Origin: Deltaproteobacteria bacterium
GTDB lineage: Bacteria > Desulfobacterota > Desulfobacteria > Desulfobacterales > SpSt-501
Direction: 5' to 3'
Assembly (NCBI GenBank): GCA_016219005.1
Contig: JACRCN010000033.1
Location: 7,595 to 71,594, forward strand
DNA length: 64,000 nucleotides
Part shown: piece after piece, positions 1,153 to 17,277 of the stretch
Layout: the number at the start of each line of letters is the position of its first letter
How positions within the stretch are numbered: the first letter of the stretch is position 1
Notes under the pieces: model-generated
What the model was told of the DNA's origin: nothing
The model's input: only the letters and a program-made list of their open reading frames with translations
Databases searched by the model: none
Program-made: the position numbers and the translations under genes

Positions 1153-2852
1153 CATCCCCGCGGTCCGCAGGGGATTCCGTGCTGCGGCTCTTCCCCGTCG
1201 TCACCCTGGCGGTGTTCCTCGCGCCGGTGGCTGCCGGGATGGTAGCCACCGCCCTGCCCGCCTTCGGCTATCTGCCCGCTCTCGGCGGGCATCAGGTCGG
1301 CGGCGCCCCCTGGCAGCGCCTGCTCGCCACCCCGGGGTTCTGGACGTCGGTGCACCTGACGGTCCAGAGCGGTTTGCTCGCAACGCTTCTCGCACTGGCG
1401 ATCGTCATCGGCTTTTGCAGCGCGATGCACAACACCCGCCTGTTCCGGCGGGCCCAGGTCATCCTCTCGCCGCTGCTGGCCACCCCCCATGTCGCGGTCG
1501 CCATCGGCTTGGCGTTTCTCATCGCCCCGGCCGGATGGGCCAGCCGGCTGGTTTCCCCGGGGCTGACGGGCTGGCAGCGGCCGCCCGACCTGGCCATCGT
1601 GCATGATGCGGGCGGGCTGTCGTTCGTCCTCGGGCTGCTGCTCAAGGAAGTGCCTTACCTGATGTTCATGACCCTGTCCGCCCTCAATCAGATCCGTTCG
1701 GGGGAAACGCTGGTTGCGGCGCGCTCGCTCGGGTATCCGCCCGCCGCGGCCTGGCTCAAGACGGTTCTGCCGCAAATCTATCCGCAGATCCGTCTGCCGG
1801 TCTACGCGGTGCTGGCCTTTTCCATGTCGGTGGTGGACGTGGCCGTCGTGCTGGCGCCGACCAACCCGCCGCCGCTCAGCACGCTGGTCTTCCGCATGTT
1901 CACCGACCGGGACCTCGCCGTGGTCTTTCCGGCCTGCGCCGGGGCCTGCCTGCAGTTGCTGCTGGTGGTCGCAATGCTCGGCGTGTGGCGCGCGGGGGAA
2001 CTCGGATTCCCGATGCTGACCCGGCGCTGGCTTACCGCAGGCGGCACGCATAAAACAGGGGCTGGGCTGCGCGCAATGTGGACGGCGGTGATGGCGACGA
2101 TGGTGGCCCTTTCGATCCTGGGCACGCTGTCCCTGGCGGTCTGGTCTTTCACGCAAACGTGGTTCTACCCGCGCGCTCTCCCGGCCGCCTGGACGCTGTC
2201 CCACTGGGAACGGCACGCGGCGGACCTGGCCGGCCCCGGGGGCACGACCCTGGCAACCGGCCTGGCCGCGGCCCTCCTGGCCATGGTGCTCTCGCTCGGC
2301 TGCCTGCAAAACGAACGGGTCAACGGTTTAGGGTCCGCTGCGCGCGCGCTGTGGCTGCTGTACACGCCGCTGCTCGTCCCGCAAATCGCCTTTCTGTTCG
2401 GAGCCCAGATGCTGCTGGTGCGGATGGGCCTTGACGGCACCTGGATCGCCCTGATCTGGAGCCACCTGCTGTTTGTCTTCCCGTACGTATTCCTGTCGCT
2501 GGCGGACCCCTGGCGGTCCTTCGACCTGCGCTACCGGAACTCGGCTCTCGCGCTCACCGGCTCGCCGCTCAGAACCTTCCTGCGAATCGAGCTGCCGCTG
2601 ATGGGCAGGCCCGCGCTCTTCGCGCTGGCCATCGGGTTCGCCGTCAGCGTGGGGCAGTACCTGCCGACGATCTTTGCCGGCGGAGGGCGTTTCACCACGC
2701 TGACGGTGGAAGCCGTAACACTCTCCAGCGGGAGCGACGCGCGGGTCACCGGCATCTACGCGCTGGTGCAGGCTGGACTGCCGCTCTTGGCCTACATGCT
2801 GGCGATCGCCTATCCCGCCTGGAGATACCGCCACCGCAAGGGCATGGGTTGA
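1128..2852 (+). CDS. ABC transporter permease, duplicated-domain YnjC-like
   Basis: 574-aa polytopic hydrophobic ORF with two permease-like halves, overlapping the binding-protein gene. An alternative GTG start lies at 1179. No cognate ATPase gene follows. Confidence 0.75.
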   Translation: MGTPLRQVTSPRSAGDSVLRLFPVVTLAVFLAPVAAGMVATALPAFGYLPALGGHQVGGAPWQRLLATPGFWTSVHLTVQSGLLATLLALAIVIGFCSAMHNTRLFRRAQVILSPLLATPHVAVAIGLAFLIAPAGWASRLVSPGLTGWQRPPDLAIVHDAGGLSFVLGLLLKEVPYLMFMTLSALNQIRSGETLVAARSLGYPPAAAWLKTVLPQIYPQIRLPVYAVLAFSMSVVDVAVVLAPTNPPPLSTLVFRMFTDRDLAVVFPACAGACLQLLLVVAMLGVWRAGELGFPMLTRRWLTAGGTHKTGAGLRAMWTAVMATMVALSILGTLSLAVWSFTQTWFYPRALPAAWTLSHWERHAADLAGPGGTTLATGLAAALLAMVLSLGCLQNERVNGLGSAARALWLLYTPLLVPQIAFLFGAQMLLVRMGLDGTWIALIWSHLLFVFPYVFLSLADPWRSFDLRYRNSALALTGSPLRTFLRIELPLMGRPALFALAIGFAVSVGQYLPTIFAGGGRFTTLTVEAVTLSSGSDARVTGIYALVQAGLPLLAYMLAIAYPAWRYRHRKGMG

Positions 2853-3314
2853 ACGTCCGCGGGCTCCGCCCAGACCGCTGCCCCTCCCTTCGTAACGGAT
2901 CTGTCTCAGTTCCATCACGCAGCCACGGTCAGCGATGGTCAGCGTTCGACGTTCGTTCTGTTCTATTGGCAGAATCGTGGTGCCGGCCCTGTTTATGGCC
3001 TCAATTTTCTCAAATTAAATAAGGTCGTACGCAAGATTATCCAGGCATTCGGGTTTCAGACTTCTGCTTATACAATGCTTTCGATTCACATGCGTCGAAT
3101 TGCTTTTAAGATCCAGCACCCCATCTGGCCTGTCCTTGTGTGGCTTAAATAAACCAGGGTCTTGGGTCGAGCCATTTCCCAATCCGCATTTGCAGTGTCA
3201 ATCGGCCACCCCCAATCGATTTAGATTATCTATTTGACATATGCATTTAAACAATAATAAAAGTGCGCCAATTAATTTCATTGGCATGGCCTTCTATCTC
3301 GAAAAGCTACGGCT

Positions 3315-3788
3315 ATGGTCAACACATTGACATCGATTTGGACCTATCGACTCATCCGCTGGCTGCTGTCGTTTATATTTCTGTATGCCGGCGCGACCAA
3401 ACTTGCGGACCCCCAGGCATTTGCCGCCCTGATCGACGCCTACGGCATCGTTGCCGATCCCTTGTTGATGCCGGTTGCGGTCGGGCTGCCGTTGCTTGAA
3501 GTGCTGGCGGCGATCGGTTTGATGGCCGATATCCGCGGATCGCTTGCCGCGGTTTCCGGGCTCATGGCGATTTTTATAACCATACTGATTTATGGCATTC
3601 GGATGGGCCTCGATGTGGACTGCGGCTGCTTCGGCCCGGAGGACATCGAGTCCCGGGCCTATCACGGCCTTTGGGAAGCACTCTACCGCGACCTCGTGAT
3701 GGCGACCGGGATCGTTTATCTCTATGGATGGCGCCGCTTCCGGTCTGCCGGTTCGGCAAACTGTCACAGTTACTTCAATGCATGCTGA
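3315..3788 (+). CDS. MauE/DoxX family redox-associated membrane protein
   Basis: 157-aa protein with four hydrophobic segments and the MauE-type DCGCFG motif. Confidence 0.75.
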   Translation: MVNTLTSIWTYRLIRWLLSFIFLYAGATKLADPQAFAALIDAYGIVADPLLMPVAVGLPLLEVLAAIGLMADIRGSLAAVSGLMAIFITILIYGIRMGLDVDCGCFGPEDIESRAYHGLWEALYRDLVMATGIVYLYGWRRFRSAGSANCHSYFNAC

Positions 3789-3802
3789 GAGGAGAATTGA
3801 AG

Positions 3803-4327
3803 ATGGGGAATTGGGCTAAATCCGGTCTCATTCTGTGCGTTTTCGTTTTCATTGGCGCCGGTGTCGTTATGGCCGCGGATAAGTTCGAAGAGGAATTCAA
3901 CTGGGAGAAGATCAGCATCGGCCTTTACAACCAGACCAAGGCCGGTGGCTACAAGCTGGTCGGCACCGAAGAACTGAAGGGCTGGATCGATGCCAGGAAG
4001 GAGATGCTGATCGTCGACACGATGCCTTACGAGGACAGCTACAAGAAGGAACACATCCCCGGCGCCAAGCAGTTCCTCTTCCCCATTCCGGACATGAAAA
4101 CCTGGGACGTTAAGGAGACCGCCGGCAAGAGCGAGCAGGATTTCGTACAGATCCTGGGGCCCGACAAAAATAAGCTGATCGTGATCTACTGCGGATTCGT
4201 CAAGTGCACCCGCAGCCACAACGGGGCCGTCTGGGCGGTCAAGAACGGCTACACCAACGTGTATCGATACCCGGGTGGGATCTTCGCCTGGAAAGGAGCG
4301 AAGTACCCGACGGCGGACGTTAAATAG
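3803..4327 (+). CDS. exported rhodanese-domain sulfurtransferase
   Basis: ATG at 3803 is preceded by GAGAGGAG. It has an N-terminal signal peptide (LILCVFVFIGAGVVMAADK) and a rhodanese fold with an active-site region IYCGFVKCTRS. The longer ORF starting at 3671 was rejected. Confidence 0.75.
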   Translation: MGNWAKSGLILCVFVFIGAGVVMAADKFEEEFNWEKISIGLYNQTKAGGYKLVGTEELKGWIDARKEMLIVDTMPYEDSYKKEHIPGAKQFLFPIPDMKTWDVKETAGKSEQDFVQILGPDKNKLIVIYCGFVKCTRSHNGAVWAVKNGYTNVYRYPGGIFAWKGAKYPTADVK

Positions 4328-4339
4328 AGGTTTTCAGGG

Positions 4340-4900
4340 GTGAATGATTCGGTCATAACGCCGGTCGATGTGCCCGTATTCATCGGCGAGCGGGCGCAAA
4401 ACCTTTTTCGCAGCCGGCAGATGTACTGCTCGGAGGCGGTCTTGGTTGTGTTGAACAATGTGCTGGGCGGAGGGCTCACGGAAAACCAAGCTTCTGCCCT
4501 TGCGGCACCGTTTGCGGAAGGCGTCGGGAAAAACGGATGCCTTTGCGGGGCTCTGGCGGGGGCACTCTTGGCTGTGGGGCTCTTCCTCGGATCGTCCAAC
4601 CCTGTAGGGCGCCGAAAACCCGTTCAAGTTGCGTCGGGTATTTTGATGAAACGCTTCAAACTGCGATTCGGCGCCTCATGTTGCCGGATCCTATCCAGGA
4701 AAGATCAAGGCGATCCCGTTCCGGTTTTCGATCGGTGCGCGCAGCAGACCGCCGAAGCCGCCGCCATGGCCGCATCGCTGATCATGGAACATCGACCGGA
4801 AGTGAAACAGCATGCGGATATTGATTATTTAAATGCCCGCGATTCGGTAGTCAGCGGGTTTTTCAAGAATTCACTCCGGCGCACGGGTTGCCGGATCTAA
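4340..4900 (+). CDS. C_GCAxxG_C_C family putative redox-active protein
   Basis: Conserved pattern YCSEAV ... GCLCGALAGA ... FGASCCRIL, typical of the C_GCAxxG_C_C family. GTG start. Confidence 0.7.
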   Translation: MNDSVITPVDVPVFIGERAQNLFRSRQMYCSEAVLVVLNNVLGGGLTENQASALAAPFAEGVGKNGCLCGALAGALLAVGLFLGSSNPVGRRKPVQVASGILMKRFKLRFGASCCRILSRKDQGDPVPVFDRCAQQTAEAAAMAASLIMEHRPEVKQHADIDYLNARDSVVSGFFKNSLRRTGCRI

Positions 4901-5125
4901 CATCGGAAGAATGGCCCTTCATCTAATGTTGTTCACTGCTTCCATCAAAAGCCACAAGATGGCCATCGTTGATTTATACCCTGGCTTTACCTGAGTGAAT
5001 TGCCTGGACGCGATCCGGGTGAGCTTCGCGCAGGATCAGGCCGAGGTTCCCGCTTTCCTTCCCTGTTAATCACCACATCTCCAAATCACCTCTGCCTGAA
5101 TCCAAATCGGTCCCAACAGATATAA

Positions 5126-5217
5126 AGGGGCAATGGTGCTGGGCACCCCGCGGTCTTCAAAACCGTCGGCCTCGTCTTAACAACGTGGAGGAGGTTCGAT
5201 TCCCCTTGCCCCTTCCA
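5126..5217 (+). tRNA. selC: tRNA-Sec (anticodon UCA)
   Basis: Anticodon loop CUUCAAA on a GCGGU/ACCGU stem, with a long variable arm, a GGTTCGATTCC T-loop and encoded CCA. The acceptor arm AGGGGCAA pairs with TTGCCCCT (8 bp). It ends 23 nt before selB. The exact 5' end and the 8/5 versus 7/5 stem partition are uncertain. Confidence 0.8.
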
Positions 5218-5240
5218 AAAGGATTGGCCATCGGTTCGAT

Positions 5241-7163
5241 ATGGAAAGCCATTACACAATCGGTTTTGCCGGCCATGTCGATCACGGCAAAACGTCGCTG
5301 GTACGCTGTTTAACCGGTGTCGACACCGATCGAAAACCCGAGGAAAAACTGCGTGGAATGTCAATCGAAGCGGGTGTGGCACCCCTCAATCTGCCCTCCG
5401 GCAGGCAAGTCGCAGTAATCGATGTTCCCGGGCACACCGATTTTCTAAAAAACACCATCCGGGGACTCAACAGCGTCGATTTGGGTGTTCTGGTCGTTGC
5501 CGCCGATGACGGCGTCATGCCGCAAACGCGAGAGCATCTTGAGATACTCAAATTTTTCAAGGCGACATCCGGATTTGTCGTATTGAGCAAAACGGATCTG
5601 GTGGACCAAGATACGGTTGAGTTGGCAGAGCTCGAAGTGCGCGAACTGCTGAGTGGGACATTTCTTGATAATCGCCCCTTTTTCAAGTTCACCACAATGA
5701 ACCCGAAGCTTTCAACCGACATTATTCAGGGCATCGATGCCGCTCTCATCGAGCTTCCGACAAAGAAATCCGACCCACCTTTCAGGCTATGGATCGACCA
5801 AGTGCGAACGCTCGTCGGTCACGGCACCGTGGTGAGTGGCACCGTATCCTCCGGGTGCATCCAGTGCGATGACGTAATAGAGCTTTTGCCTTCCGGCAAC
5901 AAGATTCGTGCCCGATCATTGGAAACACACGGAGCCGCGATTTCCAAAGCCGTTGCAGGTCAGAGAGTCGGAATCAATCTCCACCGGGTTCCCATCAATG
6001 AAATTGCTCGAGGGATGGCACTCGTGACGCCTAGCGCGATCCCTCCTGTTAATATGCTGAATGCGGATATCCACGTTTTAGAAAAAGCCAAAAGGGGCCT
6101 CAAAAACCGCCAGAAAGTTAAAATCTACCTCGGCACATCCATAACCAATGCCATGATCATCCTGATGGGTGGGGACCGGCTTGATCCGGGAGAAACCGGT
6201 CTTGCCCAAATTCGGCTGATGAGGCCGGTTGCCGCTACGCCGCAGGAAGCATTCGTTGTTTCGCCGCTAAACATCAACACGGTGATCGCCGGCGGCCGAG
6301 TGCTGGAGGCGGCGCAAGAGAAATATCGAATATCAAAATCCGGTTCGCTCCTTCCGCTTTTGACAGCTCTCCGACTGGCGGATGTTGGCGCATACGTTGA
6401 AACAGTGTTCGCCCATTCCACGGGGTACCTGATCACCGCAAGGGATTTATCCATAAAAACAGGTCTGCCGCATTCTGAGTTCGAGTCGCTGATCAGTTCC
6501 AAGGTACAAAAAGGTGAATTTATCTACATCAAGGGTTACGGCGCCATAAAGAAGACCCATGTGGCCGCGATCAAAACCGGATTTCTGGCCGTTGTGGAGG
6601 AGACATTCAAGAAAGATCCTCTGAAAAAGACCATTCTAATTTCAGAAGCGGCAGAGCGCCTGGAAAATCGGGTTGCGATTGTTCTGCTGCAAATTGTTGC
6701 CGATGAGCTTTGCGCGGAGAACAAGCTGATTCGGCTCCATGGCGGTTACCACACTCCCCTTACCGAAAAATCACTTGATGCGCATCGTGAATCCCTGATT
6801 TCACAACTGCTGGAATATGCACAAAGCTCCGGAGTCACCCCCTTCAGCGCGGACACTTTCTGGAAACTGCACCGGCCGAAGTTCAAGAAAGAGGATATCC
6901 AGCAGTTGCTCAATTATCTTTTTTCACAAGACAAAATGGTGCGGTTGAACGATCAGCGGTTTTTATCCATTGAAGCCCTGGATGAAATCAAGAGGCGCGT
7001 AACACGGACCGCAACGTCAAAAGGGTTCATCACCGTCAACGACTGTAAGGAAGTGCTGGGCTATGGGAGATCGGGCGGCACCCATGTTTTGGATCACCTG
7101 GATAAAACCGGCTTCACCGTGCGGCGGGAAGACAAACACTACCTCATGAAGAGCCTCGCCTGA
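5241..7163 (+). CDS. selB: selenocysteine-specific translation elongation factor SelB
   Basis: 640 aa. GTPase motifs GHVDHGKTSL, DVPGH and SKTD, followed by a long C-terminal winged-helix region typical of SelB. Adjacent to tRNA-Sec. Confidence 0.9.
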   Translation: MESHYTIGFAGHVDHGKTSLVRCLTGVDTDRKPEEKLRGMSIEAGVAPLNLPSGRQVAVIDVPGHTDFLKNTIRGLNSVDLGVLVVAADDGVMPQTREHLEILKFFKATSGFVVLSKTDLVDQDTVELAELEVRELLSGTFLDNRPFFKFTTMNPKLSTDIIQGIDAALIELPTKKSDPPFRLWIDQVRTLVGHGTVVSGTVSSGCIQCDDVIELLPSGNKIRARSLETHGAAISKAVAGQRVGINLHRVPINEIARGMALVTPSAIPPVNMLNADIHVLEKAKRGLKNRQKVKIYLGTSITNAMIILMGGDRLDPGETGLAQIRLMRPVAATPQEAFVVSPLNINTVIAGGRVLEAAQEKYRISKSGSLLPLLTALRLADVGAYVETVFAHSTGYLITARDLSIKTGLPHSEFESLISSKVQKGEFIYIKGYGAIKKTHVAAIKTGFLAVVEETFKKDPLKKTILISEAAERLENRVAIVLLQIVADELCAENKLIRLHGGYHTPLTEKSLDAHRESLISQLLEYAQSSGVTPFSADTFWKLHRPKFKKEDIQQLLNYLFSQDKMVRLNDQRFLSIEALDEIKRRVTRTATSKGFITVNDCKEVLGYGRSGGTHVLDHLDKTGFTVRREDKHYLMKSLA

Positions 7164-8473
7164 TGGGCATTCACGTTTACAATACACTGACCCGGAAAGA
7201 GGAGCCGCTGGAACTCATCTCACCGGGAAAAGTAAGCATCTACGTTTGCGGCCCCACCGTCTACGACGATCCGCATCTGGGACACGCCCGCCCCGCCGTG
7301 GTGTTCGATGTGATAACCCGTTACCTCAAGGCGCAAGGGCATGCCGTTACGTATGTTCGCAACCTCACCGACATAGACGATAAAATCATCGAAAAAGCCC
7401 GCCAACAAAACCGGGATTTTAAGACATTGGGCGGGCACTACGCCAATCGATATCATGAAGCCATGCGGCGCTTGAATGTCGCCGCACCCGACGCTGAGCC
7501 CAAAGCCACTGACCACATCCTCCACATGCGAGATTTCATTTCGAAACTGATCCAACGCGATCATGCCTATCAGTCCCGCGGCAATGTTTACTTCGCGGTT
7601 GAATCTTTCAAAAATTACGGAAGGCTTTCACGCCGCACGGTCCCATCTATTTCCTCGAACTTCTCCGTGGAGCAGGGCAAACGGCACCCGGCCGATTTTG
7701 CCTTATGGAAAGAGGCCAAACCGGAAGAGCCTTCATGGGCGAGCCCCTGGGGGTCTGGACGTCCCGGTTGGCATATCGAATGTTCGGCCATGAGTTCACG
7801 CTTGCTGGGGGAGAACTACGACATCCACGGCGGCGGTGCCGATCTTGTCTTCCCGCATCATGAAAATGAAATCGCGCAGTCGGAGAGCCTTTTCGGGAAA
7901 ACTCCTGCCAATTATTGGATGCATAACGGCCTTGTCTACATCGCCGGCGAGAAGATGTCCAAGTCCCTTGGAAATGCCCTTAATCTTCATGGCCTCCTTG
8001 AAATCCACCGGCCGGAGGCACTGCGCCTGTTTCTGCTGACGAAGCATTATCGGCATCCGATGGAAGTGACCCATCCGGCCTTGCATGAAGCATCCGCCCG
8101 CCTGTCGAAACTTTACCGTTTCCTTTTTCGCAGCGCATGGTCAGACGCTGAATCAGGCGAGCTTGGAATCAACCGAGGCGCCTTATGGACCCGCTTCTGC
8201 AACGCCATGGGAAAAGACTTCAACTTCCCCATGGCCCTGTCCGTTCTCTTCGAGGGTATCCGGCAGGTAAATCTTGTCTCCGGAAACAGCCGGGATGCAG
8301 TGGGTGCCGATCCCGCCTGCCGCGCGATAAGCCTTGTATCGGATATATTCTTCATTTGCCGGGATGTTCTCGGAATTGCGCCGGAGCCATCCATGGATGC
8401 ATGGCCATATGAAACCGAGACAAAATTGAGTGATGGCAAACTGCAAACCGCTACTTTTAGGAGGGCATCATGA
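7163..8473 (+). CDS. cysS: cysteine--tRNA ligase
   Basis: Class I motifs HLGH (HIGH) and KMSKS, with Zn/Cys-site residues CGPTVYD, GWHIECS and FPHHENE. Its start overlaps the selB stop (TGATG). Confidence 0.9.
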   Translation: MGIHVYNTLTRKEEPLELISPGKVSIYVCGPTVYDDPHLGHARPAVVFDVITRYLKAQGHAVTYVRNLTDIDDKIIEKARQQNRDFKTLGGHYANRYHEAMRRLNVAAPDAEPKATDHILHMRDFISKLIQRDHAYQSRGNVYFAVESFKNYGRLSRRTVPSISSNFSVEQGKRHPADFALWKEAKPEEPSWASPWGSGRPGWHIECSAMSSRLLGENYDIHGGGADLVFPHHENEIAQSESLFGKTPANYWMHNGLVYIAGEKMSKSLGNALNLHGLLEIHRPEALRLFLLTKHYRHPMEVTHPALHEASARLSKLYRFLFRSAWSDAESGELGINRGALWTRFCNAMGKDFNFPMALSVLFEGIRQVNLVSGNSRDAVGADPACRAISLVSDIFFICRDVLGIAPEPSMDAWPYETETKLSDGKLQTATFRRAS

Positions 8474-9747
8474 GTGAAGACTATCGCAGCATGTGGCAGA
8501 ACCTGGGGCTTGATCTGGTCGCTCACGACGCGCTTCTGGGCGTTCTTGGAAAATTCTACCAGGACATCTACCTGGCGCAGAAAAACCGCCCGGCAGGGAT
8601 GCAGTATTTCGATTTTGTCATGAGCGAGGTTCACGGTCTTCGAATCAGGGAACTGCTGGATGAAAAGAAAACCGGCCGCAAAGTGATCGGCACATATTGC
8701 GTGTTTGTCCCGGAGGAGATCGCGCTCGCAGGCAATGCCACGATGGTCGGCCTCTGCGCGGGCGCGGATTTCGCCATGGAAGAGGTGGAGAAAATCCTAC
8801 CCCGCAACACCTGCGCGCTGATCAAGTCCACCTTCGGCTTCAAGCTGGGGAAAGTGTGCCCTTATCTCGAAGCCTCTGACATGATCGTCGGAGAAAATAC
8901 ATGCGACGGGAAGAAGAAGGCTTACGAGTCGCTGGGTTCCCTTGTTTCCAACCTTTACGTGATGGACATCCCGCAAATGAAGTCGGCCCAAGGCCGGGCT
9001 CTGCTCAAATCCGAATACCGGCGCTTCAAGGAGGCCATTGAGAAGCTGACCGGTGTCACCATCGACGGCGCACGCCTCAAACAGGCCATCGAGATCGTCA
9101 ACAACAAGCGAAAGGCCATTCACCGTCTTTCCAAGCTGCGTCAGGCCGACCCGGCACCGATTTCGGGCCTGGATGCACTCCTGGCCAATCAGGTATTTTT
9201 CTACGACAACCCGCAGCGCTTCACGGATTCGGTCAATAAAATCTGCGATGAGTTGGAGAAGCGCGTAGAGCAAAAGCAGGGTGTGTTTCCTGCCGGCACC
9301 CCGCGCATCCTGATGTCCGGCTGCCCCATGGCAGTACCCAACTGGAAACTGCCCTGGATCGTCGAAACCTCGGGCGCCGTCATTGTCGGCGAGGAGTCCT
9401 GCGTAGGCGAACGTGGCACCCGCAACCTGGTGAATGCCTCCGGCAACACGCTGGACGAACTCATGGAGGCCATCATCGACCGCTATTTCCAGGTCGACTG
9501 CGCCATCTTCACCCCGAACCCCGATCGGCTCAAGCATGTCGAGGAGATGGTGAAAGCCTATAAGGCCGACGGCGTTATCCACTACGGACTGCAGTTCTGC
9601 CAGCCCTATCTGATGGAGGCGATTCCGGTCGCAAAAGCGCTTGAAGACCGGAATATCCCGACTCTGAGGATCGAAACCGACTACGGCATGGAAGACGTCG
9701 GTCAGCTGAAAACCAGGGTCGAAGCTTTCATCGAAATGCTGAAATAA
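8470..9747 (+). CDS. 2-hydroxyacyl-CoA dehydratase (HgdB/BcrC/BadD) family Fe-S protein, single-subunit YjiM/double-cubane-cluster-protein-like
   Basis: 425 aa with multiple conserved Cys (YCVFVPEE, CPYLEASDMIVGENTCDGKKK, SGCPM, ESCVGERG). Family recognised from memory. Its start overlaps the cysS stop (ATGA). Confidence 0.75.
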   Translation: MSEDYRSMWQNLGLDLVAHDALLGVLGKFYQDIYLAQKNRPAGMQYFDFVMSEVHGLRIRELLDEKKTGRKVIGTYCVFVPEEIALAGNATMVGLCAGADFAMEEVEKILPRNTCALIKSTFGFKLGKVCPYLEASDMIVGENTCDGKKKAYESLGSLVSNLYVMDIPQMKSAQGRALLKSEYRRFKEAIEKLTGVTIDGARLKQAIEIVNNKRKAIHRLSKLRQADPAPISGLDALLANQVFFYDNPQRFTDSVNKICDELEKRVEQKQGVFPAGTPRILMSGCPMAVPNWKLPWIVETSGAVIVGEESCVGERGTRNLVNASGNTLDELMEAIIDRYFQVDCAIFTPNPDRLKHVEEMVKAYKADGVIHYGLQFCQPYLMEAIPVAKALEDRNIPTLRIETDYGMEDVGQLKTRVEAFIEMLK

Positions 9748-9768
9748 AATGGATTCGGTACATTCTCT

Positions 9769-10518
9769 ATGCGTTGCGCAGGCATTGATATCGGCTCCCG
9801 GGCCATCAAGCTGGTAGTAGTCGAAAACGGAACTATCGGAGAGCACCGCCAGGTCGACACCGGCTATAATCCCATGGCCGCAGCCCGCAAGCTGCTGCAG
9901 GGTTTGGCTTACGACCGCATTCTCGCCACGGGTTACGGCCGCGGCCAGTTCGAAGTGGACTTCGATGCTCCCACCGTGACGGAGATCAAGGCCCATGCCG
10001 CAGGCGCGCGGTTTTTCTTTCCAGAGGTCGCCACCGTGATGGACATCGGCGGTCAGGACAGTAAAGCCATTGCGATGAACGCTGCGGGCAAAGTCGTCAA
10101 GTTCGAAATGAACGACCGCTGTGCCGCCGGCACCGGCAAGTTTTTGGAGATCATGGCGAAGTCGCTGGGATTTAGCCTGGAACAATTTGCATCCCAGGCA
10201 CTTCAGGCCGAGAAGGACATCCAGGTCAACAGCATGTGCACGGTGTTCGCCGAGTCCGAGGTCACTTCTTTGGTGGCCCGGGGTGAAGACCGGCGCAACA
10301 TCGCTTTGGGACTGCATAAGTCCGTGGTCCGGCGCGCGGCAGGGATGCTGCGGAGGGTCTCGATCGAAGGACCGGTGGTCTTTTCAGGCGGTGTGGCCAA
10401 AAACCGCTGCATGCAACGGCTTATGGAGGAGACCTTGCAGCAACCGATTCTGACGGCGGAAGACCCCCAAATGACCGGCGCTTTGGGCGCGGCGATGCTA
10501 GCCGGCTGCAGCGCTTAA
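9769..10518 (+). CDS. acyl-CoA dehydratase activase / BcrAD-BadFG-HgdC family ATPase
   Basis: 249 aa. ASKHA-fold N-terminus GIDIGSRAIKLVV, DIGGQDSK, and cluster-bridging CAAGTGKF. Confidence 0.85.
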   Translation: MRCAGIDIGSRAIKLVVVENGTIGEHRQVDTGYNPMAAARKLLQGLAYDRILATGYGRGQFEVDFDAPTVTEIKAHAAGARFFFPEVATVMDIGGQDSKAIAMNAAGKVVKFEMNDRCAAGTGKFLEIMAKSLGFSLEQFASQALQAEKDIQVNSMCTVFAESEVTSLVARGEDRRNIALGLHKSVVRRAAGMLRRVSIEGPVVFSGGVAKNRCMQRLMEETLQQPILTAEDPQMTGALGAAMLAGCSA

Positions 10519-10536
10519 GGTTTTGCACGGAGGGGC

Positions 10537-10971
10537 ATGATCCTGATTGAGGCTGAAAATATCCGCAAGACGTTCGCCGAGGACAAGGGCGGGCAGCTGC
10601 CTGCGATTGAAGACCTGAGCCTGCGAGTCCGAAAAAACGAGTTGTTTCCATCGTAGGACCGAGCGGATGCGGCAAATCGACCTTTCTGCTGATGGTCGCG
10701 GGGTTGGAGCGACTCAGTCAGGGTCGACTGCTGATCGAGGGCAAACCGGTCAACGGCCCGGATCACAGACGGGCACTGGTGTTTCAGGAATACCACCTGT
10801 TTCCGTGGAAAGGTGATGATGAGTCGGCGGCCAGGGCGGATCATCACGGACGTCCGTATCGACCTGCCGCGCCCCCGGACTCGAGAAATGCTGTTGTCCG
10901 ACGAGTTCCGCGATTATGAGCGCCATCTCAAGAAACTGGTCTGGGCCGAATTTCAAGGGGATGTGCAATGA
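10537..10971 (+). pseudogene. ABC transporter ATP-binding protein relic (NitT/TauT, SsuB-like)
   Basis: N-terminus MILIEAENIRKTF... hits a stop at 10654. Walker A VSIVGPSGCGKST continues in another frame and runs to FQEYHLFPWK. The signature and Walker B regions are missing. The C-terminal end RIDLPRPRTREML...FQGDVQ returns to the first frame. Confidence 0.7.
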
Positions 10972-11201
10972 GGACGGATACAAGAAAGTTGATGTCACCG
11001 TTGGGTCTTCTCATTGTCTGGGAGATGATCGCCAGACTCAACTGGGTGGACCCGTTCTTTCTGCCGGCTCCCAGAGCCGTATGGGGCGAGCTTCAGAAAA
11101 TGGTGGTCTCCGGCGAGATCTTCCCGCACATCGGCGTCAGTCTGGCCCGTGCGGTGAGCGGCTATCGGTGGACGCGGCCGGCAGGAAGCGCTTGGATATG
11201 A
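10968..11201 (+). pseudogene. ABC transporter permease relic (SsuC/TauC-like N-terminal ~65 aa only)
   Basis: The ATGA overlap with the ATPase relic is preserved. The sequence LLIVWEMIARLNWVDPFFLPAPRAVW...SLARAVSGY is typical of a NitT/TauT permease N-terminus, and the ORF then terminates. Confidence 0.55.
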
Positions 11202-11342
11202 AGGTTCAATTGTCCACCCCTTGCCCGTTTTGCGGCGAGCTGCATATTTACGCCGCGGCTGAATTGGCGTGTCCGCTGACCGGCAACCTTGCATGACCAT
11301 GAGGGGCAGAGGGTGACAAGTCGCGAGAAAGGCAGGTTATTA

Positions 11343-12392
11343 ATGACTGACATCAAGAACATACGTTTGACTACCACCGTGGCCGGAGCCGGCTGAGCGT
11401 CCAAGCTGGCTCCAGGGGACCTGGATCGGGCCCTGTGCGGCATGGTGTTTCCAGCGGATGCGAATGTTATCGTCGGCCTGGACCGGGCGGATGACGCCGG
11501 TGTTTATCGGATTTCAGATGACCTGGCCATAATCCAGACAGTGGATTTTTTCACTCCCATCGTGGACGACCCATACTGGTTCGGGCAAATCGCGGCTGCT
11601 AACGCACTGAGCGATATCTACGCCATGGGTGGGACCCCGAAAACCGCAATGAACCTGGTGGCCTTCCCGGTCAGGGAGATGGACATTTCCGTCCTGCGCC
11701 GGATCATCCAGGGCGGGGTCGACAAACTCACGCAGGCGGGTGTTGTTTTGCTGGGAGGTCACAGCATCGAGGACCGGGAGCTCAAATACGGGCTGTCGGT
11801 TACGGGATTCGTGCACCCGCGGCGCGTACTCACCAAGAAAAACCTCCAGGCGGGTGACCGGTTGGTCCTGACGAAACCGCTCGGCATGGGCATCGTCACC
11901 ACCGCCGTCAAGGCGGGCATGGCGCCGGCAGGACTCGTGGAATACGTCACGCACCTGATGGCTCTGCTTAACCGAAGCGCTGCAGAAATTATGTCGGGTT
12001 TCGATGTCAATGCCTGCACCGATGTAACTGGCTTCGGTCTGCTGGGGCATTTGGCTGAAATGGTATGCGGCTCCAACATGGCGGTGCGGGTCTTTTCGCG
12101 GCAAGTGCCGGTGATTCCGGAAGCATTGGAATATGCTTCCATGGGGCTTATTCCTGCCGGTGCTTACAAGAACAAGGAATTCCGGGAGTCGATGATTGCT
12201 TTCGCGGACACGGTGGAGCGCTCGCACCGGGATGTGCTCTTCGATCCGCAGACCTCGGGCGGATTGTTGATCAGCGTCAAGGCCGATCAATCCATGGAAC
12301 TCGTGGCGGCATTTAAAAACGCCGGTATCAGTGATGCAGCGGAAATCGGTGAAGTGCTGCACGGCCACGAAGAGAAAATAGTGGTGTTATAA
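11343..12392 (+). CDS. selD: selenide, water dikinase (selenophosphate synthetase), selenocysteine-containing
   Basis: The ORF track starts at 11442. In-frame upstream sequence reads MTDIKNIRLTTTVAGAG-TGA-ASKLAPGDLDRAL, matching the SelD N-terminal GxG(C/U)xxK active-site loop. TGA is at 11394..11396. The rest of the protein is a canonical AIR-synthase-like SelD. Confidence 0.9.
11408..11432 (+). promoter_or_regulatory. putative bacterial SECIS hairpin for selD
   Basis: UCCAGG-GGA-CCUGGA stem-loop at 11411..11425, extendable by GGC/GCC. It starts about 15 nt after the UGA and has a G-rich apical loop. Confidence 0.5.
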
Positions 12393-12459
12393 GGGGCCTG
12401 TTACCCGGTACGCCAAATAAACACCGGACACGAAACACCTAACACGATGAGGCGATATC

Positions 12460-13056
12460 ATGAAAGAAATCGATGCAAGAGGACTGGCCTGCCCCGCTCC
12501 GGTGCTACACACAAAAGCCACGCTGCAGGAGGAGAAACCTGCTGCCGTGAAGGTCCTTGTCGATAATGGGGCCTCTCAGCAGAACGTGCAAAGGTTCCTG
12601 GAGTCACAAGGGTTTCAGACGGCGCTCAAACAGCAAGGGTCTGATTACATAATTATCGGAACCTGCGGTTCTGAGCCCGGCGAGCATGCCCAGGCGTCCA
12701 CTGTGCCGGAAGCTGACGTCAAGAAGATCATGGTGCTGTGCGCCACCGACCGAATGGGGTTCGGGGATGACGAACTGGGCTTGAAGCTGATGGTCAATTT
12801 CTTGCGGACGCTGAAAGAAATGGGCTCCGACCTGTGGCGTCTGGTGTTTGTGAACAATGGCGTAAAGCTCGCCATCGACGGGTCGGAGGTTCTTGAAGAC
12901 CTCAAGGCCTACGAGAAGGCCGGACTGAAAATTCTGGTGTGTGGAACCTGCCTGAACCATTTCAAACTTCTGGATCGAAAGCAGGTCGGTGAAACAACCA
13001 ACATGCTCGACATTGTCACAGGTGCGCAACTCGCCGACAAAGTGATCAGTCTTTGA
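12460..13056 (+). CDS. yedF: selenium metabolism protein YedF-like (TusA/SirA domain + DsrE-like domain)
   Basis: N-terminal DARGLACPAPV (CPxP TusA motif) and a C-terminal DsrE/F-like domain, about 198 aa. Located immediately after selD. Confidence 0.75.
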   Translation: MKEIDARGLACPAPVLHTKATLQEEKPAAVKVLVDNGASQQNVQRFLESQGFQTALKQQGSDYIIIGTCGSEPGEHAQASTVPEADVKKIMVLCATDRMGFGDDELGLKLMVNFLRTLKEMGSDLWRLVFVNNGVKLAIDGSEVLEDLKAYEKAGLKILVCGTCLNHFKLLDRKQVGETTNMLDIVTGAQLADKVISL

Positions 13057-13446
13057 TGCAGCCTGTCTTTATTTTCGGGTCAAAGTATGTTCTTCAATAG
13101 CGGAGCGAAAGCCTTACGAGGCCTGTGAAAGAATAGGTCATACCATCACTTATGCAAACGCCTGAAGACCTGTTCTGATCATACGATTGCAGATGCCTCT
13201 TTGATCTTGACGGATTGAGGAAGTTGTGTCATTTTAGACTGGCTATATCAAAAATGGCATAACTATCTCTCGGACATTTTCACGAGAGAATACTCGCCCG
13301 TCTACAGTTCGTCCTTCAACCCGGGTTGAGGGGAAGCCGACTATCCATGCAGCACTTCCCTATACAAATTTCAGTTAGACGATGGGGTGGCTTTCCGCCA
13401 AGAAAAAGCTTTTACTCACCTGCAACTCAAGAAGAGAAACAAAGCG

Positions 13447-14997
13447 ATGAAACGTCCCTCTATCTCTGAAACTCTGGCAGCCTTGGGAGTCCAGGAAGAA
13501 AACGCCGGCACTGCAACCGGCTTGAAATGGCTGGAGGCCTGCGGTGCCGGCAAACTCCACAGTGATTCTCCGGTGGACGGCAAACGCATCGCCGCGGTTT
13601 GCCCGGCAACCGCGGAAGCATACGAACAGGTGATGCAGACTGCGACGGCGGCCTTTCTTCGGTGGCGCGCCGTGCCGGCCCCGCGACGTGGCGAAATCGT
13701 CCGTCAAATAGGTCATCAGCTCCGGGAATACAAGGGACCTCTCGGCCGCTTGGTCAGCTACGAGATGGGCAAATCCCTTCAGGAGGGCTGGGGCGAAGTC
13801 CAGGAGATGATCGATATCGCCGACTTCGCGCTGGGCCAGTCCCGTCAGCTCTATGGGTACACGATGCATTCCGAGCGTCCCGGCCATCGCATGTACGACC
13901 AGTACCATCCCTTGGGTGTTGTAGGGGTTATCACCGCTTTCAATTTTCCTGTGGCCGTCTGGGCGTGGAATGCGCTGATCGCGGCAGTGTGCGGCGATGT
14001 CGTGGTGTGGAAACCGGCTTCAAAGGTGCCCCTGACAGCAATTGCCGTCCAGCGCATCATCGGAAACGTTCTGCGCCAAAACGGCCTGCCCGAAGGTATC
14101 TTTAATCTCGTCATCGGCAATGGATCGGTGATCGGAGACCGGATGCTGAACGACCGCCGCATCGCCCTGCTTTCGCTCACTGGCTCAACCCGGGTGGGCC
14201 GGCATGCGGCGGCGGTCGTCGCCGGCCGGATGGGCAAAGCCCTCTTGGAGCTTGGCGGCAACAATGCTATCATTCTGACCGAAAACGCTGAATTGGAATT
14301 AGCGATTCCCTCAGTGGTGTTCGGGGCCGTGGGTACGGCCGGGCAGCGCTGCACCACTACCCGGCGGTTGATCGTCCACGAGTCGATTTTCGATCGTGTG
14401 AGAGAATCGCTCGTCAAGGCATACAGAGGTTTGAGAATCGGCGATCCATTGGACGAATCCAACCACGTGGGTCCGCTGATCGACCGGCAGGCAGTCGCGC
14501 AGTTCCTGTCAGCACTTGAAAAAATCCGCCAGGAGGGTGGCCGGATTCTCTATGGCGGCCAGGCTCTTGAAGGCAAGGGCTACGAATCCGGATGTTACGT
14601 CGTACCGGCGATTGCGGCGGCCGAAAACCATTACGAGGTCGTCCAGGAGGAAACGTTCGCGCCGATCCTTTACCTGATCCGCTATTCGGGGAGTGTGGAG
14701 AACGCCATCGCTCTTCAGAATGACGTGCCGCAGGGGCTTTCCTCAGCCATATTCACGACGGACCTGCGCCAGGCGGAAAGATTTTTGTCCGCCTGGGGCT
14801 CGGACTGCGGGATCGCCAACGTCAACATCGGGACATCCGGGGCCGAGATCGGAGGCGCGTTTGGGGGCGAAAAAGAGACCGGCGGCGGCCGCGAGTCCGG
14901 ATCTGACGCCTGGAAAGCCTATATGCGGCGTCAAACCAACACCATAAACTTCGGCACGGAACTGCCGTTGGCACAGGGCATCCGGTTCGAGATTTGA
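13447..14997 (+). CDS. NAD-dependent aldehyde dehydrogenase (ALDH7 / aminoadipate-semialdehyde dehydrogenase-like)
   Basis: ELGGNNA and GTAGQRCTT catalytic motifs. The start at 13447 (MKRPS) is preferred over the ORF-track start at 13387. Confidence 0.85.
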   Translation: MKRPSISETLAALGVQEENAGTATGLKWLEACGAGKLHSDSPVDGKRIAAVCPATAEAYEQVMQTATAAFLRWRAVPAPRRGEIVRQIGHQLREYKGPLGRLVSYEMGKSLQEGWGEVQEMIDIADFALGQSRQLYGYTMHSERPGHRMYDQYHPLGVVGVITAFNFPVAVWAWNALIAAVCGDVVVWKPASKVPLTAIAVQRIIGNVLRQNGLPEGIFNLVIGNGSVIGDRMLNDRRIALLSLTGSTRVGRHAAAVVAGRMGKALLELGGNNAIILTENAELELAIPSVVFGAVGTAGQRCTTTRRLIVHESIFDRVRESLVKAYRGLRIGDPLDESNHVGPLIDRQAVAQFLSALEKIRQEGGRILYGGQALEGKGYESGCYVVPAIAAAENHYEVVQEETFAPILYLIRYSGSVENAIALQNDVPQGLSSAIFTTDLRQAERFLSAWGSDCGIANVNIGTSGAEIGGAFGGEKETGGGRESGSDAWKAYMRRQTNTINFGTELPLAQGIRFEI

Positions 14998-16437: not shown

Positions 16438-17277
16438 ATGAAAATATACCGGCCACAAATGACCCAAGCGGGTATGTCTCTGACCTTTTCGGTGGATGCC
16501 ATTAATGCATCGGGAAAACAGACCTGTGTTGAAATTCCATACGAATTTGCCCTGACAATTCACCTCGACGGTCATGAAGTTGCCACGCTCATGACCTTGG
16601 GCACACATCCGGAAGAGCTCGTGCTGGGATATCTGCGAAATCAGGGGATGATTCGGGTTATCGAAGATATCGCATCCGTCATGGTCAACTGGGAGGAAGA
16701 AACGGCGCGGGTTGCCACTTTTCACGGAACCCCCGGGGTCGATGAGGCGAAAATGATGAGCCACCGGATTGTGACCAGCGGCTGCGGCCAAGCAATGATG
16801 TTCGACTGCCTGCTTCAGTCTGTCTACGCGGCAAAACTCCCTACACGAAAAATTCGACAGTCCGCCATCTATTCAATACTGCGAAAGCTTTCCAATCAAA
16901 ACACAATTTACCGGATAGCTGGTTCAGTGCACGGGTGTGGCTTGTGCACAGATTCTGATGTTCTGTTTTTTGTGGAAGACGTGGGCAGGCATAATGCGGC
17001 AGACGTGATTTCAGGCAGAATGTGGCTGGAGCGGATTTGCGGCGAGGGTAAGCTTCTATATACTACGGGCCGGTTGACTTCAGAAATTGTAATAAAAGCT
17101 GCATTAATGGGTATTTCCGTGCTGATTTCCAAATCCGGGACAACGCGGATGGGTCTGGAATTGGCCCAAGATTTAGGGCTGACTATGATCGGACGCGTGA
17201 AAAAAAGCCGTTTTTTAGTTTACAGCGGCGCGGAAAATCTCATTTTCGACGCACTATCTGACCGGACTGAAGAATGA
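16438..17277 (+). CDS. fdhD: formate dehydrogenase accessory sulfurtransferase FdhD
   Basis: FdhD signature EDVGRHNAADVISG, 279 aa. Confidence 0.85.
   Translation: MKIYRPQMTQAGMSLTFSVDAINASGKQTCVEIPYEFALTIHLDGHEVATLMTLGTHPEELVLGYLRNQGMIRVIEDIASVMVNWEEETARVATFHGTPGVDEAKMMSHRIVTSGCGQAMMFDCLLQSVYAAKLPTRKIRQSAIYSILRKLSNQNTIYRIAGSVHGCGLCTDSDVLFFVEDVGRHNAADVISGRMWLERICGEGKLLYTTGRLTSEIVIKAALMGISVLISKSGTTRMGLELAQDLGLTMIGRVKKSRFLVYSGAENLIFDALSDRTEE

Follow-up and report, generated by a model that had tools for sequence, protein, structure and literature searches.

Double-cubane cluster proteins (DCCPs) belong, with the 2-hydroxyacyl-CoA dehydratases and class I benzoyl-CoA reductases, to the PF06050 superfamily, in which a PF01869 ATPase drives ATP-dependent injection of low-potential electrons. 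The solved DCCP and its reductase are from Carboxydothermus hydrogenoformans (PDB 6ENO, 7YYL; Jeoung and Dobbek). This enzyme is described with an [8Fe-9S] cluster bridged by a sulfido ligand and is active on acetylene, but reduces small molecules only with its ATPase and ATP, and no physiological substrate is known (PMC7317905). Two earlier papers hinted at a link with selenium. Haft and Gwadz (2022; bioRxiv 10.1101/2022.07.06.499078), who built the NF040772 model for this family, reported from phylogenetic profiles that 955 of 970 NF040772 proteins lie in SelD-encoding assemblies and proposed either selenium-compound processing or a selenium-bridged cofactor; they also found DCCPs within 5 kb of the SAO (selenocysteine-assisted organometallic) cassette in 21 of 52 species. 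Their text does not mention YedF, and we found no description there of DCCP genes adjacent to selD, yedE or selB*. Lin et al. (2015; PMC5322559, Table 1) list HgdB-like proteins and a 'CoA-substrate-specific enzyme activase' without comment in the selenium cluster of the actinobacterium Slackia heliotrinireducens, among the STRING partners of YedE, YedF and DUF3343 and alongside SelA, SelB, SelD and a Sec-lyase-like gene.

A second relevant system is selC*-selB*-cysS*, in which a tRNA-Cys with a Sec-like fold, a SelB paralogue and a CysRS lacking its anticodon-binding domain insert cysteine at UGA (Mukai et al. 2017, PMC5389517); the tRNA is reportedly the tRNAReC of Vargas-Rodriguez et al. 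(2018). The main texts examined describe only the tRNA, selB* and cysS*, the word 'dehydratase' does not occur in them, and a conserved continuation into DCCP, activase, selD(UGA) and yedF is not mentioned. Here we describe a locus in which a DCCP and its ATPase lie within a selenium-handling gene cluster, an arrangement that recurs across sulfate-reducing bacteria and provides a testable lead on how anaerobes make the selenide they need.

A DCCP-ATPase pair between selC*-selB*-cysS* and selD-yedF

The window analyzed is a 64,000-nucleotide stretch of a Deltaproteobacteria bacterium (Desulfobacterales) genome, contig JACRCN010000033.1 of assembly GCA_016219005.1. An initial annotation proposed that an HgdB/BcrC-family Fe-S protein and its HgdC/BcrAD-type activase are wired into a selB operon, between selB-cysS and selD-yedF. 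That observation is confirmed. The features of the region are as follows, with related loci recovered in our comparisons designated by L numbers.

3315..3788 (+), MauE/DoxX-like membrane protein, a putative accessory sulfur/selenium-trafficking neighbour (PF07291 MauE, 94 bits)
3803..4327 (+), rhodanese-domain protein, a candidate persulfide/perselenide carrier (PF00581, 60 bits)
4340..4900 (+), C_GCAxxG_C_C family redox protein (PF09719, 78 bits; TIGR01909 'C-GCAxxG-C-C family (seleno)protein', 56 bits against a cutoff of 47)
5126..5217 (+), selC*-type tRNA-Cys(UCA) (tRNAReC) with a tRNA-Sec-like fold, A1:U72, U73 discriminator and encoded CCA
5241..7163 (+), selB*, a SelB paralogue beginning 23 nt after the tRNA (TIGR00475, 282 bits against 242)
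7163..8473 (+), cysS*, a CysRS lacking the anticodon-binding domain (TIGR00435, 462 bits)
8470..9747 (+), DCCP of 425 aa, the predicted electron-accepting catalytic component (PF06050 HGD-D, 406 bits; NF040772 'double-cubane-cluster-containing anaerobic reductase', 477.1 bits against 350)
9769..10518 (+), HgdC/BcrAD-type ATPase of 249 aa, the predicted DCCP reductase or 'archerase' (PF01869 BcrAD_BadFG, 181 bits; TIGR00241, 235.8 bits against 125.4)
10538..11296 (+), decayed NitT/TauT-type ABC transporter, with a frameshifted ATPase and a permease fragment
11343..12392 (+), selD with its true start at 11343 and an in-frame TGA at active-site codon 18, positions 11394-11396 (TIGR00476, 357 bits)
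12460..13056 (+), yedF, a TusA + DsrE-like selenium metabolism protein (TIGR03527, 213 bits against 110; PF01206 and PF02635)

The three gene junctions are as the initial annotation described: cTGATGg at 7161-7165 between selB* and cysS*, ATGA at 8470-8473 between cysS* and the DCCP, and a TAA at 9745-9747 followed by 21 nt and the ATG at 9769. These junctions support the view that translation of the pair is coupled to the upstream genes. Two features had been missed, the tRNA(UCA) at 5126-5217 and about 825 nt of decayed ABC-transporter remnants that separate the activase from selD. In the latter, a 75-aa fragment matches TIGR01184 ntrCD and other ABC ATPases well below their cutoffs, and an in-frame stop and a frameshift are visible in the sequence.

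The product of 8470-9747 is a true DCCP by family model, motif and full-length similarity. The next best family after NF040772 scores 125 bits, and residues 4-425 align to residues 3-422 of 7YYL_C/6ENO at 454.7 bits (about 60% identity by eye), including the N-terminal extension that PMC7317905 links to the narrow, small-molecule channel. The two proteins have the same length, and both have an adjacent HgdC-type ATPase. The published motif CX19CX18-19CX29CX166-170CX32-34CX32C is represented by C77, C96, C115, C145, C311, C344 and C377, with spacers of 18, 18, 29, 165, 32 and 32, two of which are one residue shorter than the published ranges; all seven columns are at least 99% Cys in 194 Desulfobacterota and 116 Firmicutes sequences. 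The Desulfobacterota clade has an invariant extra Cys285 and lacks the invariant Cys346 of the Firmicutes clade. The ATPase scores 167-175 bits to the solved activators 7YYL_E, 4EHT_A and 1HUX_A, and C118 (NDRCAAGTG) and C157 (SMCTVFAESE) align with the corresponding two Cys of 4EHT_A, which by analogy with HgdC are presumably the cluster-bridging ligands. Membership among the 2-hydroxyacyl-CoA dehydratases or class I benzoyl-CoA reductases is not supported, as the window encodes a single HGD-D subunit rather than an alpha/beta pair or four subunits, and scores fall far below the cutoffs (HadC 125 against 700, BzdN 85 against 454, BcrC 66 against 421).

The flanking selB-cysS genes, which the initial annotation took to be Sec-decoding, are instead part of the selC*-selB*-cysS* system. 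ARAGORN calls the tRNA as tRNA-SeC(tca), and Rfam tRNA-Sec (RF01852) scores 55.5 bits against 47. The cloverleaf shows an 8-bp acceptor stem from A1-U72 to A8-U65 and a short, bulged T stem, and the 3' end reads ...TTGCCCCT-T-CCA, so that the discriminator is U73, a CysRS identity element, rather than the G73 of a SerRS/SelA-compatible tRNA-Sec. All 14 related tRNAs next to selB* or DCCP genes also have U73. The UCA anticodon and A1:U72 likewise match the features given in PMC5389517 for loci with cysS*, and the Desulfobacterales lineage is also shared with that system. No selA lies among the annotated neighbours in the window. The 436-aa CysRS* matches TIGR00435 only over model positions 2-384 of 466, and DALR_2 only over positions 1-33 of 57. 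Without an alignment to the published sequences, its CP1 region appears to read SRRTVPSISS, where D. biacutus has PTVS and the canonical enzyme MSGA. Charging with Cys and delivery by SelB* are inferred for this locus from the homologues shown by Mukai et al. to function in E. coli, where Cys was inserted at the selD UGA. The N-terminus of SelD in the window reads MTDIKNIRLTTTVAGAG-TGA-ASKL, and all 17 linked selD orthologues also carry TGA at that position.

Recurrent linkage to selenium genes

To determine whether the pair is associated with selD, selB and yedF more widely, as the initial annotation had proposed examining, we compared gene neighbourhoods, and the result is strongly positive. 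We recovered 80 orthologous DCCP loci at 77-92% identity, with the ATPase adjacent in 74. Of the 43 loci with at least 9 kb on both sides, 23 carry selC*, selB*, cysS*, selD, yedF, yedE or DUF3343 within 10 kb; 33 of 35 nearest markers lie within 3 kb and only two between 3 and 10 kb. At least eight distinct gene orders occur. The pair thus recurs next to selenium genes in dozens of loci and its position is not due to chance, although loci from related genomes are not independent samples. In the reciprocal comparison, 8 of 9 loci found through selB* carry a DCCP-family gene within 7 kb. In five of these it is the next gene after selB*/cysS*, once with the two read as one ORF, and junctions range from a 4-nt overlap to a 51-nt gap.

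Neighbours identified with family models include YedE (TIGR04112, 480 bits), Se_S_carrier (PF11823), IscA_HesB_Se (NF038090), rhodanese, a DedA-HdrD-like fusion and Aminotran_5. A MauE-rhodanese(-C_GCAxxG_C_C) set recurs next to the DCCP in L001, L002, L025, L033, L041, L055 and L059, and rhodanese genes also lie between or after the DCCP and activase in L166, L168, L170 and L171. Other recurrent neighbours are unexplained and could point to a different substrate: a Pst-like ABC transporter, HdrD-like and MvhD genes, and a 180-aa protein of unknown family. About half of the orthologous loci with full flanks have no selenium gene within 10 kb. In the 28 loci without selenium genes the pair is a free-standing unit in unrelated contexts; no other pathway context recurs, and specifically no CoA-ester or aromatic-degradation genes. 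Three Firmicutes DCCP loci also lack selenium genes, including a 96%-identical Carboxydothermus relative of the crystallised enzyme in which the pair sits next to glycine-cleavage genes. The adjacency is therefore specific to one lineage.

Possible roles in selenium metabolism

The initial annotation's interpretation, that the pair reduces Se(0), a perselenide or an organoselenium compound to the selenide or carrier-bound Se needed by SelD, or alternatively recycles Sec, is partly supported: the family assignment, coupling and selenium association hold, but the neighbouring genes are not Sec-decoding, the selenium link had been anticipated in part, and the chemistry remains inference. We favour, with moderate confidence, the reading that the DCCP and its ATPase form a conserved working part of a selenium-assimilation module in Desulfobacterota. 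In this view the ATPase would take an electron from ferredoxin or flavodoxin and use ATP hydrolysis to push it onto the [8Fe-9S] double-cubane cluster, which would reduce a small selenium species more oxidised than selenide, most likely Se(0) held as a perselenide or selenotrisulfide on a carrier cysteine (rhodanese, the YedF TusA domain, DUF3343), with selenite a possible alternative. The product would be HSe-, which SelD converts to selenophosphate. The Se(0)/HSe- couple lies far below ferredoxin (about -0.7 V), and rhodanese-bound perselenide can feed SelD in vitro. The presumably co-transcribed selC*-selB*-cysS* genes would let the UGA-containing selD mRNA be read with cysteine when no selenium is available, so that the operon could start selenium assimilation from nothing. 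What our analysis establishes is the family membership of every gene, the operon-like junctions and a recurrent linkage to selenium genes that resists rearrangement; the substrate, the placement of the pair upstream of SelD, the selenium-starvation logic, and the cluster content and catalytic activity of the proteins are inferred from sequence and from homologues, without biochemical or expression data.

Gene linkage cannot show whether the DCCP acts before SelD or receives selenium from it, and adjacency to selD and yedF fits equally well the opposite direction, in which the double-cubane cluster carries a selenium atom, for example as the bridging ligand, installed from selenophosphate through YedF, DUF3343 or HesB-like carriers; this would be a further selenium-utilisation trait. 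Haft and Gwadz raise it as a formal possibility from the co-occurrence with SelD, and IscA_HesB_Se Fe-S carrier genes lie directly upstream of the DCCP in L044, L067 and L068 and near it in 10 loci. We consider this unlikely, because the same authors list nine DCCPs in methanogens that lack SelD, the solved enzyme is described with a sulfido-bridged cluster and is active on acetylene, and association with a system replacing Sec by Cys points, by inference, to selenium scarcity, an odd moment to build a selenium cofactor. It is somewhat less doubtful, but still unlikely, that the pair reduces a sulfur species or an unrelated small molecule and that the linkage reflects shared sulfur-trafficking proteins, shared anaerobic regulation or hitch-hiking in one lineage. 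Many neighbours are generic sulfur-transfer proteins (rhodanese, TusA, DsrE, MauE/DoxX and HdrD-like CCG proteins), Pst-like, NitT/TauT-like and CUT2-like ABC transporters are also linked, and the loci without selenium genes are consistent with this. However, the markers include the selenium-specific families selD with UGA, YedE TIGR04112, YedF TIGR03527 and selC*/selB*, distances are tight, gene orders are many, the reciprocal comparison agrees, and persulfide or S(0) reduction is not known to need ATP-boosted electrons.

Cleavage of carbon-selenium or metal-selenium bonds in imported organoselenium or organometallic compounds to release selenide, akin to the role Haft and Gwadz proposed for DCCPs next to the SAO system, is a more remote possibility. 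Related enzymes perform radical chemistry on carbon substrates, and importers recur beside the pair: the decayed NitT/TauT transporter in the window, intact NitT/TauT-type genes in L018 and L172, and YedE, DedA and Pst-like systems elsewhere. But the transporter types vary from locus to locus, no MerB-like lyase lies nearby, and no SAO family member is present, the only hit being a 30.5-bit match of a pseudogene fragment to SaoA against a cutoff of 360. Moreover, the transporter in the window is a pseudogene, while the DCCP remains under strong constraint, with 213 of 425 positions at least 97% conserved. Very unlikely, although not excluded, is that the DCCP acts with CysRS* on the aminoacyl-tRNA, either editing the aminoacyl group or using ATP-boosted electrons and a selenium donor to convert Cys-tRNA(UCA) into Sec-tRNA(UCA), which would be a SelA-independent route to selenocysteine. 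The hints are the 4-nt overlap of cysS* and the DCCP in the window, L167 and L168, their reading as a single 866-aa ORF in L164, which could be a 1-nt assembly error, and the position of the DCCP as the next gene after selB*/cysS* in most such loci. No chemical precedent is known, and the narrow substrate channel described for DCCP argues against a tRNA-bound substrate. Most DCCP orthologues (about 66 of 80 loci) have no selC* or selB* within 10 kb but often have selD, yedF or yedE, and L169 has selB*-cysS* with no DCCP nearby.

The DCCP-ATPase pair and its flanking genes

The observation made in the initial annotation, of an HgdB/BcrC-family protein gene and its activase gene placed between selB-cysS and selD-yedF, holds, and both open reading frames are present as described. 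The features of the region are as follows.

5126-5217, tRNA with a UCA anticodon, 23 nt upstream of selB*
7161-7165, TGATG junction of selB* and cysS*
8470-8473, ATGA junction of cysS* and the DCCP gene
8470-9747, double-cubane cluster protein (DCCP), 425 aa
9769-10518, BcrAD/BadFG ATPase (ACT), 249 aa, after a 21-nt gap
10538-11296, remnants of a NitT/TauT-type ABC transporter
11343, start of selD, with an in-frame TGA at the active-site position
12460, start of yedF

The product of ORF 8470-9747 matches Pfam HGD-D at 406 bits and passes the NCBIfam equivalog model for double-cubane-cluster-containing anaerobic reductases, NF040772, with a score of 477 bits against a cutoff of 350. It aligns end to end with the crystallised Carboxydothermus DCCP (7YYL_C/6ENO) at 454 bits (about 60% identity by eye), and the match includes the N-terminal extension. 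The seven motif cysteines (C77, C96, C115, C145, C311, C344, and C377) are present and are invariant or nearly so (at least 99%) in 310 relatives. A dehydratase or benzoyl-CoA reductase identity was considered but rejected, because those models score 125 bits or less against cutoffs of 420-700, the subunit count does not fit, and CoA-pathway neighbours are absent. The product of ORF 9769-10518 scores 236 bits to TIGR00241 against a cutoff of 125, and matches the solved activators at 167-175 bits with both cluster cysteines aligned. The junctions reported in the initial annotation are exact.

The initial annotation overlooked the tRNA, and regarded the adjacent selB and cysS as selenocysteine-decoding genes. 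ARAGORN and Rfam both call the tRNA as tRNA-Sec; however, its 3' end reads TTGCCCCT-T-CCA, giving an A1:U72 first pair, an 8-bp acceptor stem, and a U73 discriminator together with the UCA anticodon. The cysS product is 436 aa long and matches the CysRS model only over positions 2-384 of 466, and it thus lacks the anticodon-binding domain. This is exactly the selC* tRNA-Cys / selB* / cysS* arrangement described by Mukai et al. for a subgroup of Desulfobacterales, who showed in E. coli that such a tRNA inserts cysteine at the UGA of a selD gene (PMC5389517; reviewed in PMC7609411). By analogy, the upstream genes are therefore a Cys-at-UGA recoding system and not the standard selenocysteine decoder.

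Downstream, selD carries its in-frame TGA in the context VAGAG-TGA-ASK, and is followed by yedF (TIGR03527). Folding of the region after the selD UGA in search of a SECIS hairpin gave a z-score of 0.2, which is uninformative, as was a promoter and terminator scan over 2900-13500, in which the counts equalled those of shuffled controls. About 825 nt of decayed NitT/TauT-type ABC transporter, consisting of a frameshifted ATPase with an internal stop and a permease scrap, lie between the ATPase gene and selD. Intact transporters of this type sit beside the DCCP and ATPase genes in loci L018 and L172 (L numbers denote the loci recovered in our searches). Upstream of the tRNA there are genes for a MauE/DoxX-like protein, a rhodanese, and a C_GCAxxG_C_C protein.

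Linkage of DCCP genes to selenium genes

To determine whether the DCCP is tied to selenium genes we scanned species-representative genomes, which returned 80 loci with orthologues at 77-92% identity, nearly all from Desulfobacterota, with Desulfosarcina or Desulfonema strains among those carrying the locus (L030, L055). Each locus was searched with the window's proteins, all neighbouring ORFs were clustered, and the recurrent clusters were named with Pfam and NCBIfam. The ATPase gene is present in 74 of the 80 loci, and the other recurrent neighbours are listed below.

Table. Recurrent neighbours of the DCCP gene other than the ATPase, with the number of loci
~180-aa protein of unknown family: 30
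yedF: 20
selD: 17
selC*-type tRNA: 14
HdrD-like: 14
selB*: 13
Pst-like ABC transporter: 13
MvhD: 12
IscA_HesB_Se (NF038090): 10
YedE (TIGR04112, 480 bits): 9
DUF3343 Se/S carrier (PF11823): 9
MauE/DoxX-like protein: 8
rhodanese: 8

Among the 43 loci with at least 9 kb on both sides, 23 have a core selenium marker. The nearest marker lies within 3 kb in 33 of 35 cases and between 3 and 10 kb in only 2, a distance decay that serves as an internal control against a uniform background. At least eight different gene orders occur, including selC*-selB*-(cysS*)-DCCP-ACT, DCCP-ACT-selD-yedF, DCCP-ACT-yedF...selD, DCCP-ACT-yedE-DUF3343-CarbK-selD, HesB_Se-DCCP, and MauE-Rhod-CGCA-DCCP, and the linkage has therefore survived or re-formed through many rearrangements. 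All 14 tRNAs in the related loci have U73, and all 17 linked selD genes have TGA at the active-site codon. We also asked whether the DCCP or its ATPase might themselves be selenoproteins, but no in-frame stops were found in either among orthologues above 50% identity.

The linkage was also examined from the selB* side. A scan of metagenome contigs with selB* returned mostly GTPases of about 30% identity, picked up through the generic G-domain peptide, and was of no use for this purpose. We therefore used a protein search and inspected the surroundings of nine selB* homologues (50-75% identity) on long contigs. Eight of these have a DCCP-family gene within 7 kb, and in five of the eight the 425-aa DCCP is the next gene after selB* or cysS*, once with the two read as one ORF, with junctions running from a 4-nt overlap to a 51-nt gap. 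Six also have selD. The exception, L169, has selB*-cysS*-yedE-TusA-DUF3343-selD-yedF. In L164 (ERZ25039495 contig_78266, 8923-11523), cysS* and the DCCP read as one uninterrupted 866-aa ORF (junction ...SRRIIMSEDY...), which is either a natural CysRS*-DCCP fusion or a 1-nt assembly indel.

The linkage has limits. In the 28 loci without selenium genes the DCCP-ATPase pair is a free-standing unit in unrelated surroundings, and no alternative pathway recurs. Three Firmicutes DCCP loci, from a 96%-identical relative of the crystallised enzyme, Desulfosporosinus, and Thermincola, show no selenium genes, and physical linkage is therefore a feature of the Desulfobacterota clade. In Thermincola potens (L083), a protein with weak matches to the 2-thiouracil desulfurase families (PF04463, PF27735) is encoded divergently upstream of DCCP-ACT at 9213-9761, placing a sulfur-removal enzyme next to a Firmicutes DCCP. 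The Desulfobacterota clade is very constrained, with 213 of 425 positions at least 97% conserved across 194 sequences. Cys285 (window 9322-9324) is invariant in these 194 proteins and is never Cys in 116 Firmicutes DCCPs, which instead have an invariant Cys at the position of window Ile346 (9505-9507).

A proposed role in selenide supply

Two things are established about DCCPs: the ATPase uses ATP to inject a low-potential electron into the [8Fe-9S] cluster, and the enzyme reduces small molecules such as acetylene through a narrow channel that the review authors take to favour small molecules over CoA esters (PMC7317905). The same review reports that the natural substrate is not known. The linked genes described here cover selenium import (YedE, DedA), cysteine-based sulfur/selenium carriers (rhodanese, YedF, DUF3343, and an Aminotran_5 enzyme), and SelD, and given that set the most economical reading is that the pair reduces carrier-bound or otherwise oxidised selenium to selenide for SelD. 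The Se(0)/HSe- couple lies near -0.7 V, below ferredoxin, although our literature search yielded no citable value for this potential. Sulfide turns selenite into Se(0), and rhodanese perselenide can feed SelD in vitro. Together these would explain why sulfate reducers need ATP-boosted electrons at this step. In this view, the selC*-selB*-cysS* genes in the same operon would allow the UGA-containing selD to be translated with Cys when selenium is absent, breaking the circular dependence of SelD on its own product.

The interpretation offered in the initial annotation, that the pair belongs to a selenium-processing system and may reduce a selenium species to the form needed by SelD, is partly supported: the neighbourhood analysis favours the connection to selenium, but the upstream genes are not the selenocysteine-decoding genes they were taken to be. 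The family assignments, the gene junctions, and the recurrent linkage rest directly on the sequences, whereas the substrate, the chemistry, the placement of the pair upstream of SelD, the recoding activity at this locus, and its role under selenium starvation are inferred. We consider a functional link to selenium metabolism to be likely, but the full proposal, including its direction, is about as likely as not.

Other readings remain possible but are less favoured. Haft and Gwadz (2022) raised the formal possibility that the DCCP is a selenium client, with a selenium-containing cluster supplied by SelD. The adjacent HesB_Se genes support this, but DCCPs occur in SelD-lacking methanogens and the cluster of the solved enzyme is sulfido-bridged and active, and we regard it as unlikely. 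The pair could act on a sulfur or unrelated small-molecule substrate, with its linkage reflecting shared carriers or regulation, and although this is also unlikely it is slightly less so than the client model. Cleavage of organoselenium or organometallic compounds is more doubtful still; no SAO genes are present in the window, and when we asked whether the loci with the order DCCP-DCCP2-ABC-ACT are SAO systems, the transporter in L065 proved to be of the CUT2 type and no sao family scored. A role at the level of the tRNA together with CysRS* is the least likely of these.

The proteins are clear members of known families and the upstream recoding system is published. The association of DCCPs with selenium was foreshadowed at the level of genome co-occurrence (Haft and Gwadz 2022), and it appears without comment in a STRING table for Slackia (Lin et al. 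2015). Among the papers we could search, none characterises a DCCP with a selenium substrate, and we found no recent functional work on YedE/YedF. Nor do they describe the conserved, translationally coupled placement of the DCCP-ATPase pair directly after selC*-selB*-cysS* and before selD(UGA)-yedF or yedE, the reciprocal strength of that linkage, or the resulting view of a self-starting selenium-assimilation operon.

Two open questions meet at this locus: the natural role of the DCCPs, which have a nitrogenase-like cofactor and solved structures but no known physiological substrate (PMC7317905), and the means by which strict anaerobes, especially selenoprotein-rich sulfate reducers in sulfidic sediments, obtain the selenide that SelD needs. 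A conserved operon joining a DCCP-ATPase pair to SelD, YedF, YedE, and selenium carriers names a concrete, testable substrate class for an enzyme with a remarkable cofactor. The locus also extends the published selC*-selB*-cysS* system into a larger functional unit in which the UGA-containing selD would be the natural target of Cys recoding, suggesting a way round the problem that SelD is itself a selenoprotein. If the chemistry were confirmed, this would be the first physiological role for the [8Fe-9S] cofactor and a new step in the selenium pathway.

Additional features of the window and related loci

The commonest neighbour of the DCCP-ATPase pair is a protein of about 170-180 aa with no Pfam or NCBIfam match, which is found at L043 (12018-12560) and 29 other loci, either just after the ATPase or just before the DCCP, but is lacking from the window. 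By eye it shows a RelE/ParE-like motif. Unannotated ORFs that correspond in size and position only are found before selC*/selB* in L165 (6349-6864), L166 (6361-6840), and L169 (5926-6435). A second DCCP paralogue (27-37% identity) often follows the DCCP or the ATPase, as in L014, L018, L019, L033, L040, L041, L045, L055, L059, L065, L165, and L167; the L065 copy scores 440 bits to NF040772.

The trio of YedE, a DUF3343 carrier, and a YjeF_C-like 'carbohydrate kinase' protein of unknown role (a weak PF01256 hit) recurs as a block, often just before selD, in L024 (4128-7034), L015, L066, L067, L068, L071, L039, and L005. The PstS/PstA-like ABC transporter (TIGR02136 at 209 bits against a cutoff of 207) lies next to DCCP-ACT in 13 loci, among them L022, L036, L042, L055, L056, L064, L066, L072, and L079, and may import an oxyanion other than phosphate. 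HdrD-like (CCG domain), MvhD/FlpD, and large HdrA-like genes recur just upstream of selC*/selB* or the DCCP in L011, L032, L041, L044, L055, L067, L068, L170, and L172, and are a possible electron-supply or disulfide-reducing partner.

Within the window, positions 1-3000 are 64-70% G+C, against about 50-60% in the rest of the first 20 kb; this stretch encodes an ABC substrate-binding protein and a permease, and may be acquired DNA. Three unrelated features were also identified: FdhD/NarQ, the formate dehydrogenase sulfurtransferase (16438-17277; PF02634, 232 bits), a fused B12-binding-MeaB-mutase protein of 1087 aa that is IcmF-like (25634-28897), and a tmRNA with the tag ADDYAYAVAA (48911-49267).
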